Shown: in pieces, positions 1-7,343 of the stretch | Layout of the letters: the number at the start of each line of letters is the position of its first letter | Numbering within the stretch: position 1 is the stretch's first letter | Source: a virus | UHGV virus genome: UHGV-0084128 | Length of the DNA: 10,606 bases | Strand: one strand, 5' to 3' | Made by a program: the position numbers and the translations under genes | The notes under the pieces: generated by a model | What the model was told of the DNA's origin: nothing | Databases searched by the model: none | What the model saw: only the letters and a program-made list of their open reading frames with translations

Positions 1-180
1 CGAATGCCGGATACCAAAACAGCCGTTCTTGTTGCCGTGGAGTTTGACAGGAAAGGTGACTGGCGAATGAAATGGGCGACTTACATCCCGGGTCATCCTG
101 ACGCTAATGATGGGTGGATAATTCCTGGTGCGTCGTGGAAACCGTCACACTGGATGCCGCTACCAGAGCCTCCACTTTGA
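1..180 (+). CDS. 3' end of an early-left (ea-region) gene of unknown function; 5' end lies outside the window
   Basis: Frame 1 is open from nt 1 to TGA at 178-180 (…AVLVAVEFDRKGDWRMKWATYIPGHPDANDGWIIPGASWKPSHWMPLPEPPL*); same strand as xis/int downstream; no recognisable motif. Confidence 0.4.
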   Translation, partial: RMPDTKTAVLVAVEFDRKGDWRMKWATYIPGHPDANDGWIIPGASWKPSHWMPLPEPPL

Positions 181-276
181 AAGCGAAGCTTATACATATC
201 TTTTACATCAGCAATCTATTGTTAATCTCCAATCAATGTTACGTTGTCATCTCACTCATGCTTTGGAGGTAGTGAT

Positions 277-456
277 ATGTCTTGTCCAAAATGCGGTTCT
301 GGAAATATTGCAAAAGAAAAAACAATGCGTGGATGGTCTGGTGATTATGTGTGCTGCGATTGCGGATACAACGACTCTAAAGACGCATTTGGAGAGCGTG
401 GTAAAAACGAGTTTGTTAAAATTAATAAAGAACGCGAAGGCAACGAAAAAAGCTAA
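277..456 (+). CDS. Small zinc-ribbon protein (59 aa), function unknown
   Basis: ATG at 277 preceded by SD GGAGG (266-270); CPKC…CCDC cysteine pairs (CxxC-x19-CCxC) typical of a zinc ribbon; Lys/Glu-rich tail. The ORF-track TTG start at 244 is rejected in favour of the SD-associated ATG. Confidence 0.6.
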   Translation: MSCPKCGSGNIAKEKTMRGWSGDYVCCDCGYNDSKDAFGERGKNEFVKINKEREGNEKS

Positions 457-521
457 TTTATTTATTCATATATGAAAACAATGTAACCAATATTCGAATT
501 GAAGAACTGAAAGAACACCAA

Positions 522-545
522 GCCGCCTGATGGCGGTTTTTTATT
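522..545 (+). terminator. Rho-independent terminator downstream of the zinc-ribbon gene
   Basis: GC-rich hairpin GCCGCC-tgat-GGCGG followed by TTTTTTATT, immediately upstream of the next gene's SD. Confidence 0.55.
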
Positions 546-556
546 GGAGACAAGAA

Positions 557-901
557 ATGTCAGATTTGGCTATGAAGGTTTTGAAATGGCAATCGACTGG
601 CGATGTCGGCATCAGTAGCGCAACTCTTGCCTCAATCGCATGTGGACTGAAAAAGAATATCTATGGTCATCACTTCGGCGCTCCACATGACGCAGCAGAT
701 TTCCGACGATGCGTTGCACTTGTTGAGCAGATTCCAGAAATCAGAGATTCATTCGACAAGGTTGCAAAGCGCGTTCCGGCATTCAAAGGCATCCTCAACG
801 AATGGGATTCCCTCGTTGCTCTGTTGAAGTCTGAAATGAAGATACACGGAAACAAAGCACCAGAGACTTACAGAAGAATTAGCGAGTTACGCAAGGACTA
901 A
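557..901 (+). CDS. Hypothetical early-left protein (114 aa)
   Basis: ATG at 557 with SD GGAGA (546-550); ORF-track start at 530 would lie inside the terminator hairpin, so the internal ATG is preferred; no signal peptide or motif I can name. Confidence 0.6.
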   Translation: MSDLAMKVLKWQSTGDVGISSATLASIACGLKKNIYGHHFGAPHDAADFRRCVALVEQIPEIRDSFDKVAKRVPAFKGILNEWDSLVALLKSEMKIHGNKAPETYRRISELRKD

Positions 902-960
902 CCACAGCCTCACACTCGATGAGGCCAGTTCATTTCTCAAGATATCCAGACCTACCATCG

Positions 961-983
961 CCGCATCAATGCGGTTTTTTATT
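961..983 (+). terminator. Rho-independent terminator between the 114-aa gene and xis
   Basis: Hairpin CCGCA-tcaa-TGCGG followed by TTTTTTATT. Confidence 0.55.
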
Positions 984-990
984 GCCTGAT

Positions 991-1006
991 TTGCAGGTTC
1001 GATTCC
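991..1006. other. 16-nt segment TTGCAGGTTCGATTCC matching the T-arm of tRNA-Arg (argW)
   Basis: Exact 16/16 match to my recollection of E. coli argW nucleotides spanning the T-stem 5' half, T-loop and first two 3' T-stem bases; flanks do not continue the tRNA, so this is not a tRNA gene. Confidence 0.5.
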
Positions 1007-1025
1007 CTATTCGGAGATAGCACTC

Positions 1026-1226
1026 ATGCAACACGAACTACAGCCTGATTCACTGGTTGATTTGAAATTCATCATGGCTGATACTGGCTTTGGTAAAACC
1101 TTCATCTACGACCGGATTAAGTCTGGCGACCTGCCGAAAGCCAAAGTTATCCACGGACGCGCAAGATGGTTATATCGTGACCATTGTGAATTCAAAAATA
1201 AGCTCTTAAGCCGCGCCAATGGGTAA
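1026..1226 (+). CDS. xis: Excisionase / recombination directionality factor, AlpA/TorI family
   Basis: 66-aa protein MQHELQPDSLVDLKFIMADTGFGKTFIYDRIKSGDLPKAKVIHGRARWLYRDH…; winged-helix excisionase signature; SD GGAGA 8 nt upstream; sits directly upstream of attP and int. Matches my recollection of TorI of prophage KplE1. Confidence 0.85.
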   Translation: MQHELQPDSLVDLKFIMADTGFGKTFIYDRIKSGDLPKAKVIHGRARWLYRDHCEFKNKLLSRANG

Positions 1227-1242
1227 AATAGCGGGTAAAATA
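1221..1242 (+). repeat. Two direct copies of GGGTAAAATA (candidate Int arm-type or Xis binding sites), P-arm side of attP
   Basis: GGGTAAAATA-gc-GGGTAAAATA; the first copy overlaps the xis stop codon. Confidence 0.6.
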
Positions 1243-1299
1243 TTTTTCACATCTAAAAAACACCATTCCAATCAATCCCCTGCCTCGTCAAGTAGATGT

Positions 1300-1315
1300 C
1301 TGCAGGGGACACCAT
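1300..1315. other. Candidate attP core: match to the 3' terminal 15 nt of tRNA-Arg (argW), including CCA
   Basis: CTGCAGGGGACACCA(T) matches the 3' T-stem bases, acceptor 3' strand, discriminator and CCA of argW (from memory); lies between xis and int and is flanked on both sides by GGGTAAAA repeats. Confidence 0.6.
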
Positions 1316-1409
1316 TTATCAGTTCGCTACCATCCGTACCAGTCCGCAAAATCCCCTGAATATCAAGCCTTCCGTAGATTCACAGTTCGTCATGGTTCGC
1401 GTAAGATCG

Positions 1410-1439
1410 TTGACAGCCGCACTCCATGACGGGTAAAAA
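1410..1439 (+). promoter_or_regulatory. Candidate int promoter overlapping the arm-type repeats
   Basis: TTGACA (1410-1415), 18-nt spacer, TAAAAA (1434-1439); the -10 overlaps GGGTAAAA at 1431-1438, suggesting autoregulation. Weak -10, so low confidence. Confidence 0.3.
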
Positions 1440-1475
1440 GTGGATAAAATAATTTTACCCACCGGATTTTTACCC
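1431..1475. repeat. Four further copies of the GGGTAAAA motif (two direct, two inverted) at the int 5' end, P'-arm side of attP
   Basis: GGGTAAAA (1431-1438), GGATAAAA (1442-1449), TTTTACCC (1453-1460), TTTTACCC (1468-1475); the last abuts the int ATG. Confidence 0.6.
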
Positions 1476-2633
1476 ATGCTCACCGTTAAGCAGATTGAAG
1501 CAGCAAAGCCGAAAGAAAAACCATACCGCCTACTCGATGGTAATGGCCTGTACCTTTATGTCCCTGTATCCGGGAAAAAGGTATGGCAGCTTCGCTACAA
1601 GATTGACGGTAAGGAGAAAATCCTGACCGTCGGAAAATATCCGCTTATGACTTTGCAAGAGGCAAGGGATAAAGCATGGACTGCGAGGAAAGACATCTCG
1701 GTTGGCATCGATCCGGTAAAGGCGAAAAAGGCTTCGTCTAACAACAATTCATTTAGTGCGATTTACAAGGAGTGGTACGAGCACAAGAAGCAAGTCTGGT
1801 CAGTAGGCTATGCAACTGAACTTGCCAAAATGTTTGATGACGACATTTTACCCATCATCGGCGGCCTTGAAATTCAGGATATTGAGCCGATGCAACTGCT
1901 GGAAGTAATCCGCAGATTTGAAGATCGCGGCGCAATGGAGAGAGCCAACAAAGCCCGCAGAAGATGCGGCGAGGTTTTCCGTTACGCTATTGTTACTGGT
2001 AGGGCTAAATATAACCCGGCACCTGACCTTGCTGACGCCATGAAGGGATACCGCAAGAAGAACTTCCCGTTTCTTCCTGCAGACCAGATCCCGGCATTCA
2101 ACAAAGCACTGGCAACATTTTCAGGAAGTATCGTATCGCTCATTGCGACCAAAGTTTTACGCTACACAGCCCTAAGAACGAAAGAGCTTCGTTCCATGCA
2201 ATGGAAGAACGTCGATTTTGAAAACAGGATTATCACTATCGACGCCAGTGTGATGAAGGGACGCAAGATTCATGTTGTCCCGATGTCGGACCAGGTGGTT
2301 GAACTTCTCACTACGCTAAGCTCCATCACTAAACCAGTATCAGAGTTTGTTTTTGCCGGGCGCAACGATAAGAAGAAGCCAATCTGCGAGAACGCGGTAT
2401 TGCTTGTGATCAAACAAATCGGCTATGAGGGTCTGGAAAGCGGTCACGGATTCAGGCATGAATTCAGCACGATTATGAACGAGCACGAATGGCCTGCTGA
2501 TGCTATTGAAGTGCAACTGGCACATGCCAACGGCGGATCTGTGCGCGGGATTTACAACCATGCTCAGTATCTCGATAAGCGCAGAGAAATGATGCAGTGG
2601 TGGGCAGACTGGCTTGATGGGAATGTATCATAG
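1476..2633 (+). CDS. int: Tyrosine site-specific integrase, P4/IntS-like (385 aa)
   Basis: N-terminus MLTVKQIEAAKPKEKPYRLLDGNGLYLYV… typical of the P4-type integrase arm-binding domain; C-terminal catalytic motifs (…HGFRHEF…, …RGIYNHAQY…). ATG at 1476 preferred over the ORF-track GTG at 1440, giving the 385-aa length I recall for IntS. Confidence 0.95.
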   Translation: MLTVKQIEAAKPKEKPYRLLDGNGLYLYVPVSGKKVWQLRYKIDGKEKILTVGKYPLMTLQEARDKAWTARKDISVGIDPVKAKKASSNNNSFSAIYKEWYEHKKQVWSVGYATELAKMFDDDILPIIGGLEIQDIEPMQLLEVIRRFEDRGAMERANKARRRCGEVFRYAIVTGRAKYNPAPDLADAMKGYRKKNFPFLPADQIPAFNKALATFSGSIVSLIATKVLRYTALRTKELRSMQWKNVDFENRIITIDASVMKGRKIHVVPMSDQVVELLTTLSSITKPVSEFVFAGRNDKKKPICENAVLLVIKQIGYEGLESGHGFRHEFSTIMNEHEWPADAIEVQLAHANGGSVRGIYNHAQYLDKRREMMQWWADWLDGNVS

Positions 2634-2642
2634 GGAATTGGC

Positions 2643-2674
2643 GCAAAACCTTGCAAACCGATGCAAAGCTTTGC
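2643..2674. other. Three GCAAA repeats at 10-bp phasing ending in the 12-bp palindrome GCAAAGCTTTGC, in the convergent int/tailspike gap
   Basis: GCAAA at 2643, 2653 and 2663; perfect palindrome at 2663-2674 followed by a T-rich tract. Possible protein-binding site or weak convergent terminator. Confidence 0.25.
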
Positions 2675-2692
2675 GTGTGATATTTTTAACCA

Positions 2693-4825
2693 TCAAACTC
2701 CGGTTGTAATTGGAACCCAGTTATTTTTGCCTATAGCCGTGCAAAGATACTGAAATCCACTCGCCGTGTTAACATACACGGCACCAGGTTTGCCTGATAT
2801 AACCCCATTTGGGGTGCCATTACCTGAAATAAAAATGAAACCATTCTGGAAGGATACACTTTGAGTGTAATCACCTTGTCCTACCTCTCTAGCCATATCT
2901 CTAATGGCGCAGGCCCACGTACCCGCATTAGATATATTAGATATATTATCACCAGACAGCGGCGCAATAGCGATCATTGGGATTGAATTATCCCCACCAT
3001 ACCCCCGAATATTTGATATTTCTCTCTGCACAATTGTATCAGTGAGATCACGAATAAGTGGTACGGTTACTGTATCCTCACATATAAAATTTCTTATACA
3101 ATAGTCATCGACGGCAGCATTAGTTTCTATGTGGATTAAACCTTCTGATGTGGTATTGGATGCCCCACTATATCCACCAGTCCATTGAATACCGTCAAAG
3201 TTTAGATATTTAGCACCGCCAGTTATATATACATTACCGCCACCACCAATAACACGAAGATTTCTTACGTACACGCCAAAGAAACCTAGAACGTAAACTG
3301 CACGAGCGTGAAGCGACATATATTTAGCGTTATTTGCGTTATCAGACGTGCAATCCTCAATCACTGAATTACGTGCTTGTTGATGTTGCCCGGAAGGTAT
3401 TGTCTGTGAGTTTCGATGTTCAATTTGGAAACTGTAAACACAATCTTTTGCATAACAACGAATGAATCTGACACTTCTGGCGGGCATTGTAGTGGAGTGA
3501 CCTTTTTGTTGAAATCCAGTGATAACATTTTCAGCATAACAATCCATTACTGTGACGTTATAACTTCCTTCATCAATTTCAATTCCGTGTTGGTTATCAT
3601 TCCATACTTGAGATGGGTCATCGTTCCATACTCGGCATCTGTTTATAACTATATCGCTGCTGTTATGTGTGGTTATAAGGTCGTCAAGTTGCGTATTTCG
3701 TGCAGACACATCTTCAACCAGAATGTTATAGCTCCCCCCAACAGCATTGTTGTCGATATTACCATCATCAAAATAGTATCCAGCACAAATATCAATTCCG
3801 TGCTGTAGTCCACGCTGAACATACACGCGCTTGATAGAGCTATTCCTTACCGTAGATAGTAGAATGGTAGTACCCTGCGTTGCATCCATCCATGTTTCAG
3901 TTGGGTTTCTCGCCCTGTTGTTAGCATCAACACCCAGGTCTTCAATACTAATATCCGTATCGTAGTTTGTCCGGAATACCTTGTACTCGTATAGTTCATT
4001 CTGGATGCAGTTTTCAGTTATCGGCATCGAAGCAAGGGCAAGGATGGTTGTTTTCAGTTTTCCTGCACCGCGCAATCTAACGTGAGATGGTACTTTCAGT
4101 GCAGAGTTAATCCCGTAAGTACCTTCAGAAAGAATAAGCTCTTTCACCGTTGCCATTTTTGCCTCTTGCAGTGCTTTGTTCAATTTATCATGATAATCCG
4201 TTACTCCATCTGGAACAATTCCGTAATAATCAGCATACACTTTATTGCATATCCTTTTCCAACGCTTTCCACCAGGCGTGACAATTATCATTCCATCATC
4301 ATCTTCTGAAGTATTATCTGTTGAATCATACTCAAAAAAACCGCCACCGATACCAACACCATCACTATGCTCAATAACATTTATTAATTGACTTTCAATT
4401 GTTGGTTCTATTAGACGTAAATCATTAATATTTTTGCATCTCCCTATGTATTTAAAACCATCCGGTCCAATTAATCTCAACTCTAATTGGTCAGGGTTAT
4501 ATTTCAGAATGTTTGGGTAGTAAAATTGTTGCACTCCATACGCATCATAAACAGCCATAGAATGGCCTTGCACGGTTACAAACTTGGCAATCTGTCCGTT
4601 ATATACAGGGTAACCAGCAGCGTTAATGATGATTGGTTGCGATACAGGAACGTGAGAGCCGTCTTCGTTCTCTACATAAACCTGAATCCGGTTTTCAGGA
4701 TTTACAGGGTCAGTGTCAATTTTACCGATATAAATTTTGCCATTGGCTACGGCTTTAAAAGAACGCGCCATAGTGAAGAGTTGCGAAGGCATCGATACGA
4801 TCACATTGGCTGTAATGTCTGTCAT
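2693..4825 (-). CDS. 9: Tailspike protein (710 aa): P22-family head-binding domain plus a distinct receptor-binding/depolymerase domain
   Basis: First ~110 aa ([59 protein letters not shown]…) match the conserved P22/Sf6/HK620 tailspike N-terminal domain; the remainder is Gly/Asn/Ser/Thr-rich as expected for a beta-helix domain; SD GGAG upstream; 710 aa equals the HK620 tailspike length as I recall it. Confidence 0.9.
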
Positions 4826-6416: not shown

Positions 6417-6836
6417 TTAGTCTTGCTTTGTTGATGGTATAAGAGATGCGTTTGCCTCTTTTGGCTTCAAGGTATACATCCCACCATTAAAAGGATCTAC
6501 AGCAAGCCAACCAATTAACCCACCAAACACAAGGTTTCCACCAATATACCAGCCATTAGCATTGGCTTTGATTGGCAGGGTAACTGGTTCGTACCCATCC
6601 TTTTCCATAGTGATCTGGTAGCTCTTTTTGCCAAAATAACTACCATCTGACTTGGCAAGAGTTACTCCTTGCGGGGTCTTACCTTGCGCAACAATCACGC
6701 CTGATTCGTCTTTTACCTTAAAGCTCGCACCGGAAGGATTGCTGTTCACTTGCACAAGCTGCGTTTCGTCACCAACAATAGTTGCGCACCCAGATAACAA
6801 TATAGCGCCAGCAACGACGCCAATAATCCTCTTCAT
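6417..6836 (-). CDS. Lipoprotein with a PEGA-like domain and a C-terminal Gly-rich hydrophobic segment (139 aa precursor)
   Basis: Signal peptide MKRIIGVVAGAILLSGC with lipobox LSGC; PEGA-like motifs (NPSGASF…GKTP…DGYEP); C-terminal WYIGGNLVFGGLIGWLAVDPFNGG. Start at the second ATG (6836) because it yields a canonical lipoprotein signal. Confidence 0.7.
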   Translation of the reverse strand: MKRIIGVVAGAILLSGCATIVGDETQLVQVNSNPSGASFKVKDESGVIVAQGKTPQGVTLAKSDGSYFGKKSYQITMEKDGYEPVTLPIKANANGWYIGGNLVFGGLIGWLAVDPFNGGMYTLKPKEANASLIPSTKQD

Positions 6837-6953
6837 ATCAATTTCCATATTTAAAAAACCGGAAACATCCTAATGACAAAACATTCAAATGTGAAGTAGG
6901 CAAAAGATGTTTACTTTTTTCATGGTATCCTGCTCAAAACTAAGGAGGTTGGC

Positions 6954-7343
6954 GTGAAGCAATTTCTTACTGCTATGTTCTTATTCATATCTTTTGGGGC
7001 TACAGCAGAGTGCTGGGTCGTTGGAGATATGCGCGGAATAAGCTATTCAGAACGAAATAATTTCCATCCGGAAGAAGATGGTTTTAGTGGAACATTCATC
7101 ATTAAGACAAACGGTGAAGATGCCAGCATCACATATTCTGGGACAGATGCGGGCGGCATGGCTTACAAAGCATTGTCTAAAAACTCCATCATAGGAATCG
7201 GCGCGAATGGCGAAACTCAACGCGTTATCGACTCATGGGTAATACATCCTACTGGAACAGTTTTAATGTCAAAAACCATTTCCGGTTATGGAAATATGGA
7301 TTCAACCAAAGCTTTTGTTGGAAAAGTAAAAAGAAAATGTTAG
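6954..7343 (+). CDS. Secreted or periplasmic protein of unknown function (129 aa precursor)
   Basis: GTG start with strong SD AGGAGG (6943-6948, 5-nt spacing); signal peptide MKQFLTAMFLFISFGATA with A-x-A cleavage site; mature protein has Cys at both ends; convergent with gene 16 and divergent from the lipoprotein gene. Confidence 0.65.
   Translation: MKQFLTAMFLFISFGATAECWVVGDMRGISYSERNNFHPEEDGFSGTFIIKTNGEDASITYSGTDAGGMAYKALSKNSIIGIGANGETQRVIDSWVIHPTGTVLMSKTISGYGNMDSTKAFVGKVKRKC

Follow-up and report, generated by a model that had tools for sequence, protein, structure and literature searches.

The viral genome stretch UHGV-0084128 (10,606 nucleotides (nt); this whole stretch is called the window below) carries near its left end two small genes, eaG and ORF114, each followed by a GC-rich hairpin and a U-run and both lying upstream of xis. 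On the + strand the end of a DUF551 gene is followed by the open reading frame (ORF) of eaG, which encodes 59 amino acids (aa), the 114-aa ORF, a TorI-like xis, attP and an IntS-type integrase gene; beyond the integrase gene the opposite strand carries the tailspike gene, ant, arc/mnt-like genes and DNA-injection genes. The first 1,300 bases of the window match HK620, HK633, HZ41, Sf101, HK022, 434 and many Shiga toxin (Stx) phages at 95-99% and are also matched in thousands of E. coli prophages; the window belongs to an HK620-like, P22-like (Lederbergvirus) phage with the KplE1/HK620 recombination module. A preliminary description, made from the letters of the DNA, had placed the two genes in the early-left region upstream of xis, and this placement is right. 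Both ORFs are real and have good ribosome-binding sites (RBSs), and both terminators, which were found again by a terminator scan, are conserved and annotated in published records; chance hairpins were rejected on these last two grounds. The coordinates of all features are collected in Table 1.

Table 1. Features at the distal end of the early-left region of UHGV-0084128 (positions are those of the window).
Feature	Position	Strand	Evidence
Upstream early-left gene, 3' end (DUF551; HK620 hkaE / P22 eaA-like)	4-180	+	PF04448, expectation value (E) 1.7e-14; HK620 annotation
eaG (HK620 hkaD, 'Eag protein'), 59 aa	277-456	+	phrog_2945; HK620 identity
lambda/434 orf55 non-coding remnant	483-530	+	alignment with 434 and HK620; lambda sequence and translation
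Terminator copy 1 (lambda t'I)	520-545	+	terminator scan; fold; lambda identity
438-nt ORF114 cassette (RBS, ORF114, hairpin, terminator copy)	546-983	+	alignment with HK620; direct repeats
ORF114, 114 aa	557-901	+	434 ORF114 identity; phrog_1229
Conserved hairpin without U-run	907-925	+	terminator scan; fold; 80-locus comparison
Terminator copy 2 (434 t'-I homologue)	960-983	+	terminator scan; fold; 434 alignment
pI-type CII-dependent promoter, HK620 integration module	981-1019	+	homology to HK620 annotation
xis, TorI-like recombination directionality factor, HK620 hkaC	1026-1226	+	sequence match; HK620 annotation
Integrase, IntS/KplE1 type	1476-2633	+	phrog_1, E 3e-81; HK620 annotation

Both hairpins consist of a GC-rich stem followed by a U-run on the pL-transcribed strand. 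The terminator scan, which returned 19 terminator-like sites in the whole window against 10.4 +/- 3.1 in shuffled sequences, reads copy 1 as AAGCCGCC-TGAT-GGCGGTTT plus U6 (stem-loop at 520-539, eight pairs, five of them GC) and copy 2 as GCCGCA-TCAA-TGCGGT plus U6 (stem-loop at 960-975, six pairs, four of them GC); the fold energies are -13.4 kcal/mol (z-score -2.5) and -9.9 kcal/mol (z-score -1.4), respectively, copy 2 being the weaker hairpin. Copy 1 is identical to lambda t'I. In lambda, orf55 (lambdap35) has its stop codon within this hairpin, which is directly followed by the CII site of pI, the sequence running from GAACACCAAGCCGCCTGATGGCGGTTTTTT into CTTGCGTGTAATTGCGG and on to the ATG of xis. 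Positions 483-545 of the window are base-identical to the lambda stretch, so that what the window contains is a non-coding stub of orf55, its last 16 codons (48 nt reading VTNIRIEELKEHQAA and a stop codon that falls within the loop of terminator 1) together with the lambda terminator; no ORF was called over this stub in the window. In phage 434 the terminator 1 sequence closes an intact ORF55 and is followed by ORF114, a second hairpin and pI. This second hairpin, labelled 't'-I' in M60848 and 'terminator, PMID 6305007' in OL657226, is the feature with which copy 2 aligns. The two copies are paralogous direct repeats (522-546 versus 960-984, 21 of 25 nt, 84% identical) and share an exact 14-mer, GCGGTTTTTTATTG, at 533-546 and 971-984, for which the chance expectation is none. 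Copy 1 directly abuts pI and its CII site in both lambda and HK620. In the window that place, immediately 5' of the CII site of pI, is taken by copy 2, whose U-run overlaps the TTGC of the site (TTGC-N5-TTGC, 982-994, mapped through the alignment from the HK620 features 'promoter: phage integration' and 'cII protein'). Each gene had earlier been credited with a terminator of its own; a hairpin does stand 3' of each, but the first is lambda t'I with its orf55 remnant, and the supposedly gene-specific terminators turn out to be two copies of the published t'I that bracket an ORF114 cassette.

When the window is aligned with 434 and HK620, exactly 438 nt (GGAGACAAGAAATG...ORF114...GCCGCATCAATGCGGTTTTTTATTG) prove to be missing from HK620, a length that is also the start-to-start spacing of the direct repeats; ORF114 and one copy of the terminator thus form a cassette that is inserted or deleted at the t'I/pI junction. 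Since the terminator copies are direct repeats, the unit can be inserted or deleted by recombination between them, and either event leaves a terminator abutting pI. We compared 80 IMG/VR prophage loci that carry ORF114 at 98-100% aa identity, and in every one a terminator U-run abuts the ORF114 RBS. The upstream terminator is lambda t'I, as in the window, in 51 loci; in the other 29 it is the one found ahead of orf55 in lambda, corresponding to the tL4 region of 434, with the joint at GGAGA (TTTTATGGAGA|), and ORF114 there occupies the exact orf55 slot of lambda. A downstream terminator is found in 62 of the 80, namely terminator 2 in 52, which lead into a lambda-type (33) or an HK620-type (19) pI/xis with the switch inside the U-run, and a different one (CCGCTATATGGCGG plus U-run) in ten, where it precedes a third xis type. 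The remaining 18 loci are joined to three further module types and have no downstream terminator. At least six types of xis/int module follow ORF114 in this sample, and because the mosaic joints fall in terminator/RBS sequences, we conclude that ORF114 travels as a single-gene cassette; at a coverage of at least 80% the cassette is present in 913 of 5,426 complete E. coli genomes. Directly 3' of the ORF114 stop codon the cassette includes a hairpin without a U-run (GCCTCA-N7-TGAGGC), which is kept in 68 of the 80 loci whatever follows, its substitutions lying mostly in the loop; one variant alters both arms (CAGTCTCA...TGAGGACTG), and a role of the hairpin in RNA stability or processing is conceivable. 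In Mannheimia phage vB_MhS_1152AP2 a homologue of 33% aa identity lies between two intrinsic terminators, each followed by a U-run and GGA, and directly upstream of a small xis-like ORF and int; in Salmonella SE22 and Cronobacter ENT47670 the homologue is directly upstream of int or xis-int, in SE22 also with an upstream terminator. For three divergent single proteins of the ORF114 family no related loci were found in IMG/VR.

We consider it likely that the locus is the distal end of the pL operon of an HK620-like phage, in which the ORF114 cassette is lodged between copies of t'I and both small genes are pL-dependent accessory genes. Behind eaG come the dead 3' stub of orf55 and lambda t'I; the cassette sits between t'I and the CII-activated pI, and the second, diverged terminator copy within the cassette restores the terminator/pI junction. 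Gain, loss and swapping of the cassette probably proceed by recombination in short terminator-U-run/RBS sequences (TTTTAT(T)GGAGA and the shared 14-mer), which explains the HK620 deficit, the use of the lambda orf55 slot and the variety of xis/int modules downstream. A chain of terminators that makes the distal pL genes, xis and int dependent on antitermination is the standard lambdoid design. No promoter-like site was found on the + strand at positions 1-1000, and only 11 nt separate the end of terminator 1 from the ORF114 start codon, so both genes should be transcribed only from N/gp24-antiterminated pL transcripts. It is proposed that eaG and ORF114 are delayed-early products, like xis, and that the t'I copies, to judge from their sequence, should halt unmodified polymerase ahead of pI and xis. 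Both Eag and ORF114 are tentatively taken to be dispensable accessory proteins.

ORF114 is preceded by the RBS GGAGA at 546-550. Many database entries use the ATG at window position 530, giving a protein of 123 aa; this start was rejected because it lies inside the terminator stem and lacks an RBS. The protein shows 97.4% aa identity to ORF114 of 434 (M60848, an int-xis record of 1991), matches phrog_1229 over its full length (residues 1-114, E 7e-52) and also occurs in HK022, mEp043, Stx phages and Salmonella phage g341c. Compared with phage 434, the ratio of nonsynonymous to synonymous substitution rates (dN/dS) is 0.11; in the comparison with Salmonella phage SE22 the proportion of synonymous differences (pS) is 0.80, at which synonymous sites are saturated, and that of nonsynonymous differences (pN) is 0.26. 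ORF114 is a real gene under strong purifying selection, and a spurious ORF was rejected on the selection statistics and the structure model. The AlphaFold2 (AF2) model, with a predicted local distance difference test (pLDDT) score of 93.3, is a soluble, all-alpha protein of seven helices. Nothing significant was found for ORF114 in Pfam, NCBIfam or PADLOC, and Pfam scans of 61 family members and 20 multidomain relatives returned nothing except one fusion to a CCA-adding enzyme; among solved structures the model has no relative, and this includes DNA-binding and nuclease-inhibitor structures. An exhaustive profile search gave 2,846 clusters at 50% identity with E <= 1e-3, and 653 with E <= 1e-10, and tblastn placed members in 275 phage records of GenBank, their hosts including Vibrio, Salmonella, Klebsiella, Yersinia (PY54), Mannheimia, Providencia and Arthrobacter. 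Among the 61 members (about 30-45% identity) S20, P43, D45, D48, R51, C52 and W83 are invariant; they are found where helices 2 and 3 begin and within helices 3 and 6. These positions fit helix caps (N-caps) and core packing, which makes us lean to a binding module over an enzyme. ORF114 is most likely, though with low confidence, a soluble helical-bundle protein that binds a host or phage macromolecule rather than a catalyst.

The neighbours of ORF114-family genes differ from phage to phage and include RdgC, RusA, exonucleases, HNH, Ea22 and tail genes. The last case is Vibrio phage K73, in which a lone opposite-strand homologue (3872-4330 of the fetched stretch) has the tape-measure gene on one side and further tail genes on the other; such a position is classic for a moron and contrasts with the promoter-less lambdoid cassette. 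Two domain arrangements were seen among relatives, the encoding contigs found being 1-5 kb only: an ORF114 domain at the C-terminus of a phage CCA-adding enzyme (P0215, 558 aa, 37-1713 on a single 1.9-kb metagenomic contig) and a 333-aa protein with two tandem ORF114 domains (P0102); with one example each, they are too thin to build on. Many database 'proteins' consist of half of ORF114 joined to fragments of Kil, Erf, Ea22 or a dATP/dGTP pyrophosphohydrolase, which suggests deletion joints inside ORF114 in decaying prophages.

The product of eaG begins MSCPKCGSG, and its RBS, GGAGG at 265-269, lies 7 nt ahead of the ATG. Eag matches phrog_2945 over residues 1-58 (E 1.7e-31), a full-length family match; the eaG region has 98.6% DNA identity to the hkaD region of HK620, and the protein shows 73% aa identity to Eag of Salmonella phage 22. 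The fetched eaG sequences vary too little for a test of selection, and the coding status of the gene is accepted because of its strong RBS and family conservation. Cysteines C3, C6, C26/C27 and C29 (C3-P-K-C6-G and C26/C27-D-C29-G) form a four-cysteine zinc-ribbon pattern, and the AF2 model contains a two-strand ribbon with a pLDDT of about 80 over residues 1-32 and below 50 in the tail. Searched against Pfam, NCBIfam and PADLOC, Eag returned zinc-ribbon matches only, all of them sub-threshold. The zinc ribbon named in the preliminary description is borne out as a prediction by these cysteines and the modelled ribbon; Eag is predicted to have the ribbon in residues 1-32 followed by a labile C-terminal tail, the model supporting the ribbon part. 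The tail occurs in two reading frames in nature (window 400-475): E. coli forms of Eag end in GKNEFVKINKEREGNEKS (59 aa), and P22-type Eag ends in GKTSLSELIRNAKATKKANLFIHI (65 aa), which is the other frame of the window, because of a change in the length of an A-run near 403-407. Constraint within Eag appears to be limited to the zinc ribbon; several database Eag entries are frameshifted inside the ribbon too. We tentatively regard Eag as a small zinc-ribbon binder. The preliminary description could assign neither protein to a known family, but both can be assigned: Eag is phrog_2945 (hkaD) and ORF114 is the ORF114 of 434 and HK022 (phrog_1229), although these are names without function; as a whole, the earlier interpretation stands for early-left accessory genes and falls for the identities of families and terminators.

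Several points weigh against the proposed pL-operon arrangement and the protein roles attached to it. The promoter scan covered sigma-70 consensus sites only. The published evidence on t'I enters through GenBank annotation only; its source is said to be the work of Benedik, Mascarenhas and Campbell from 1983, 'The integrase promoter and T'I terminator in bacteriophages lambda and 434'. Terminator 2 is weak, with its 6-bp stem and low z-score, and a downstream terminator is not obligatory, as the 18 loci without one show. A binder is preferred to an enzyme because of the kind of residues that are invariant and because no enzyme-like fold matched, and the invariant Asp/Asp/Arg/Cys/Ser set would suit a catalytic or ligand-binding site equally well.

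Other roles for the two genes can be set against these data. That one or both proteins are anti-defence or host-takeover factors, with Eag as a Lar/Ral-like alleviator of type I restriction, is a possibility we consider rather unlikely. The genes do lie among early-left accessory genes; the best Pfam match of Eag is Lar_restr_allev (E 7e-5), BLASTP gives 30% identity over 54 aa to Lar/RalR of the Rac prophage, some close Eag homologues bear a precomputed PF14354 tag, and 'Lar-like' genes occur in blocks with ORF114 homologues in PY54 and Vibrio phage K250. However, Eag scores below the family cut-offs (23.4 versus 28.6 bits for PF14354, 14.9 versus 39.6 bits for TIGR03655), its comparison with Lar by hhalign has a probability of 8% (E 0.0042, both alignments being very shallow), and it has K-I-N-K-E in place of the RWNxR helix motif, whose R49, W50, N51 and R53 are invariant in seven of seven Lar sequences. 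Because of the sub-threshold scores, the missing RWNxR motif, the frame switch of the tail and a model limited to the ribbon, we do not file Eag as a member of Lar, and a Lar-like action of Eag may serve as a lead suggested by sequence. Literature searches found functional data neither for phage eaG/Eag nor for ORF114, 'Eag protein' retrieving only chaperones of type VI secretion systems (T6SS). A broader proposal would make ORF114 the founder of a large family (at least 2,846 clusters at 50% identity) that forms a new class of effectors, host-targeting or anti-defence, with a new fold, carried in lambdoid phages as a terminator-bounded, promoter-less cassette whose hairpins double as recombination linkers between genomes; the family spans phages of Proteobacteria and Actinobacteria, temperate and virulent, and we judge this proposal unlikely.

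A helper role of ORF114 in DNA recombination, repair or nuclease functions, such as the modulation of a phage or host nuclease, is distinctly unlikely. In Salmonella phage FSL SP-062, with translational coupling, and in Klebsiella phage Carvaje its homologues adjoin RdgC; the neighbour is RusA in Vibrio phage K250, exonucleases in PY54 and an HNH endonuclease in Arthrobacter phage PhluffyCoco. But these neighbours change from phage to phage in regions that are general dumping grounds for small early genes, the lambdoid ORF114 lies far from the Rec module, and its model resembles no DNA-binding or nuclease-inhibitor structure. A part in integration or excision would fit the position of the family, whose members immediately precede xis/int in lambdoid phages of E. 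coli (at least six module types), SE22, ENT47670 and 1152AP2. Against it, the homologues in FSL SP-062 and Carvaje have no integrase in the stretches viewed, those in PY54 and in the tail module of K73 have no integration module nearby, and HK620 and lambda integrate without ORF114. The presence of the family in FSL SP-062 (which we take to be a virulent, 9NA-type Nonanavirus), in Carvaje-type phages and in PY54 (presumably a linear-plasmid prophage) likewise argues against a dedicated integration role, which we regard as very improbable. The genes might instead be autonomous morons with their own promoter and terminator, expressed by the prophage for the lysogen, since the cassette is a terminator-bounded unit with presence/absence polymorphism between collinear genomes, and the K73 homologue stands alone on the opposite strand. 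This too is improbable, as the 5' edge of the cassette carries only an RBS, the sigma-70 scan was negative on the + strand at 1-1000, and any promoter upstream of terminator 1 would need read-through to reach the ORF114 ATG. An action of ORF114 on transfer RNA (tRNA) or tRNA repair, to which the one CCA-adding-enzyme fusion, present on a 1.9-kb contig of a single sample, could point, is scarcely credible; the window contains no tRNA genes.

The remaining features of the window concern its integration module and the region beyond it. xis, attP and int are contiguous (1226-1476), and the sequence therefore represents a non-integrated form (phage/virion or circular). In modules of the HK620/KplE1 type, xis and int come to lie at opposite ends of the prophage and are transcribed separately (PMC2951348). 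A direct repeat, GCCTGATTTGCAGGTT at 984-999 and GCCTGATTCACTGGTT at 1043-1058 (13 of 16 nt), takes in the CII/pI site and the beginning of xis and could be a pair of protein-binding sites or due to chance. Between the arc/mnt/ant immunity-I region and the DNA-injection genes lie two divergent genes, one on the - strand (6417-6848) for a 143-aa putative lipoprotein (phrog_6823) and one on the + strand (6954-7343) for a 129-aa protein with an N-terminal hydrophobic leader (phrog_2651); they look like lysogenic-conversion or moron-type inserts. No Rfam family was found at positions 1-3000 of the window at E <= 1.

All elements discussed here (eaG, ORF114 and t'I) are already in GenBank records, and the architecture is ordinary for a lambdoid phage. 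The window shows mosaic joints exactly in terminator-U-run/RBS sequences, indicating that terminators act as linkers for swaps of single-gene cassettes. ORF114, with relatives in the thousands among other phages and a presence in about 17% of the complete E. coli genomes, is without an assigned function, a Pfam entry or a structural relative. Being common yet unmatched, it is a reasonable and cheap candidate for anti-defence and toxicity screens and for structure determination.

The locus can be compared with several known systems. Lar/RalR of Rac (PF14354, TIGR03655) resembles Eag in being about 60 aa long, in its CPxCG...CxxC zinc ribbon and in lying near xis at the distal early-left end; Eag differs in falling below both thresholds and in lacking the RWNxR helix, and the Rfam scan (positions 1-3000) detected no antisense small RNA like RalA. 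The moron concept was described for HK97 and HK022; like lambdoid morons, the ORF114 cassette is discrete, present or absent between collinear genomes and terminator-ended, but it lacks its own promoter, follows a terminator and would depend on antiterminated operon transcription. In 434 and HK022 the order is ORF55, ORF114, t'-I, pI and xis (M60848, OL657226, X51962), ORF114 shows 97% aa identity, and together with the two flanking terminators and the post-stop hairpin it has 95-97% DNA identity to the window; 434 differs from the window in its intact ORF55 upstream and its lambda-type pI/xis/int downstream, the junction switching within the terminator U-run (TTTTCTTGCGTG in 434, TTTTTTATTGCCTG in the window). 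Lambda, with the order orf55, t'I, pI and xis, has the same terminator 1 and preceding 48 nt at the same place, the end of the pL operon before the CII-dependent int promoter, whereas in the window orf55 is cut to a 16-codon stub behind eaG, the ORF114 cassette parts the terminator from pI, and pI, xis and int are of the HK620/KplE1 type. HK620 (hkaD, pI, hkaC) agrees with the window at about 98.6% identity in eaG, the stub of orf55, terminator 1, pI, xis, attP and int; it differs in lacking the 438-nt ORF114 cassette, and its terminator 1 runs straight into pI with the CII site and xis.

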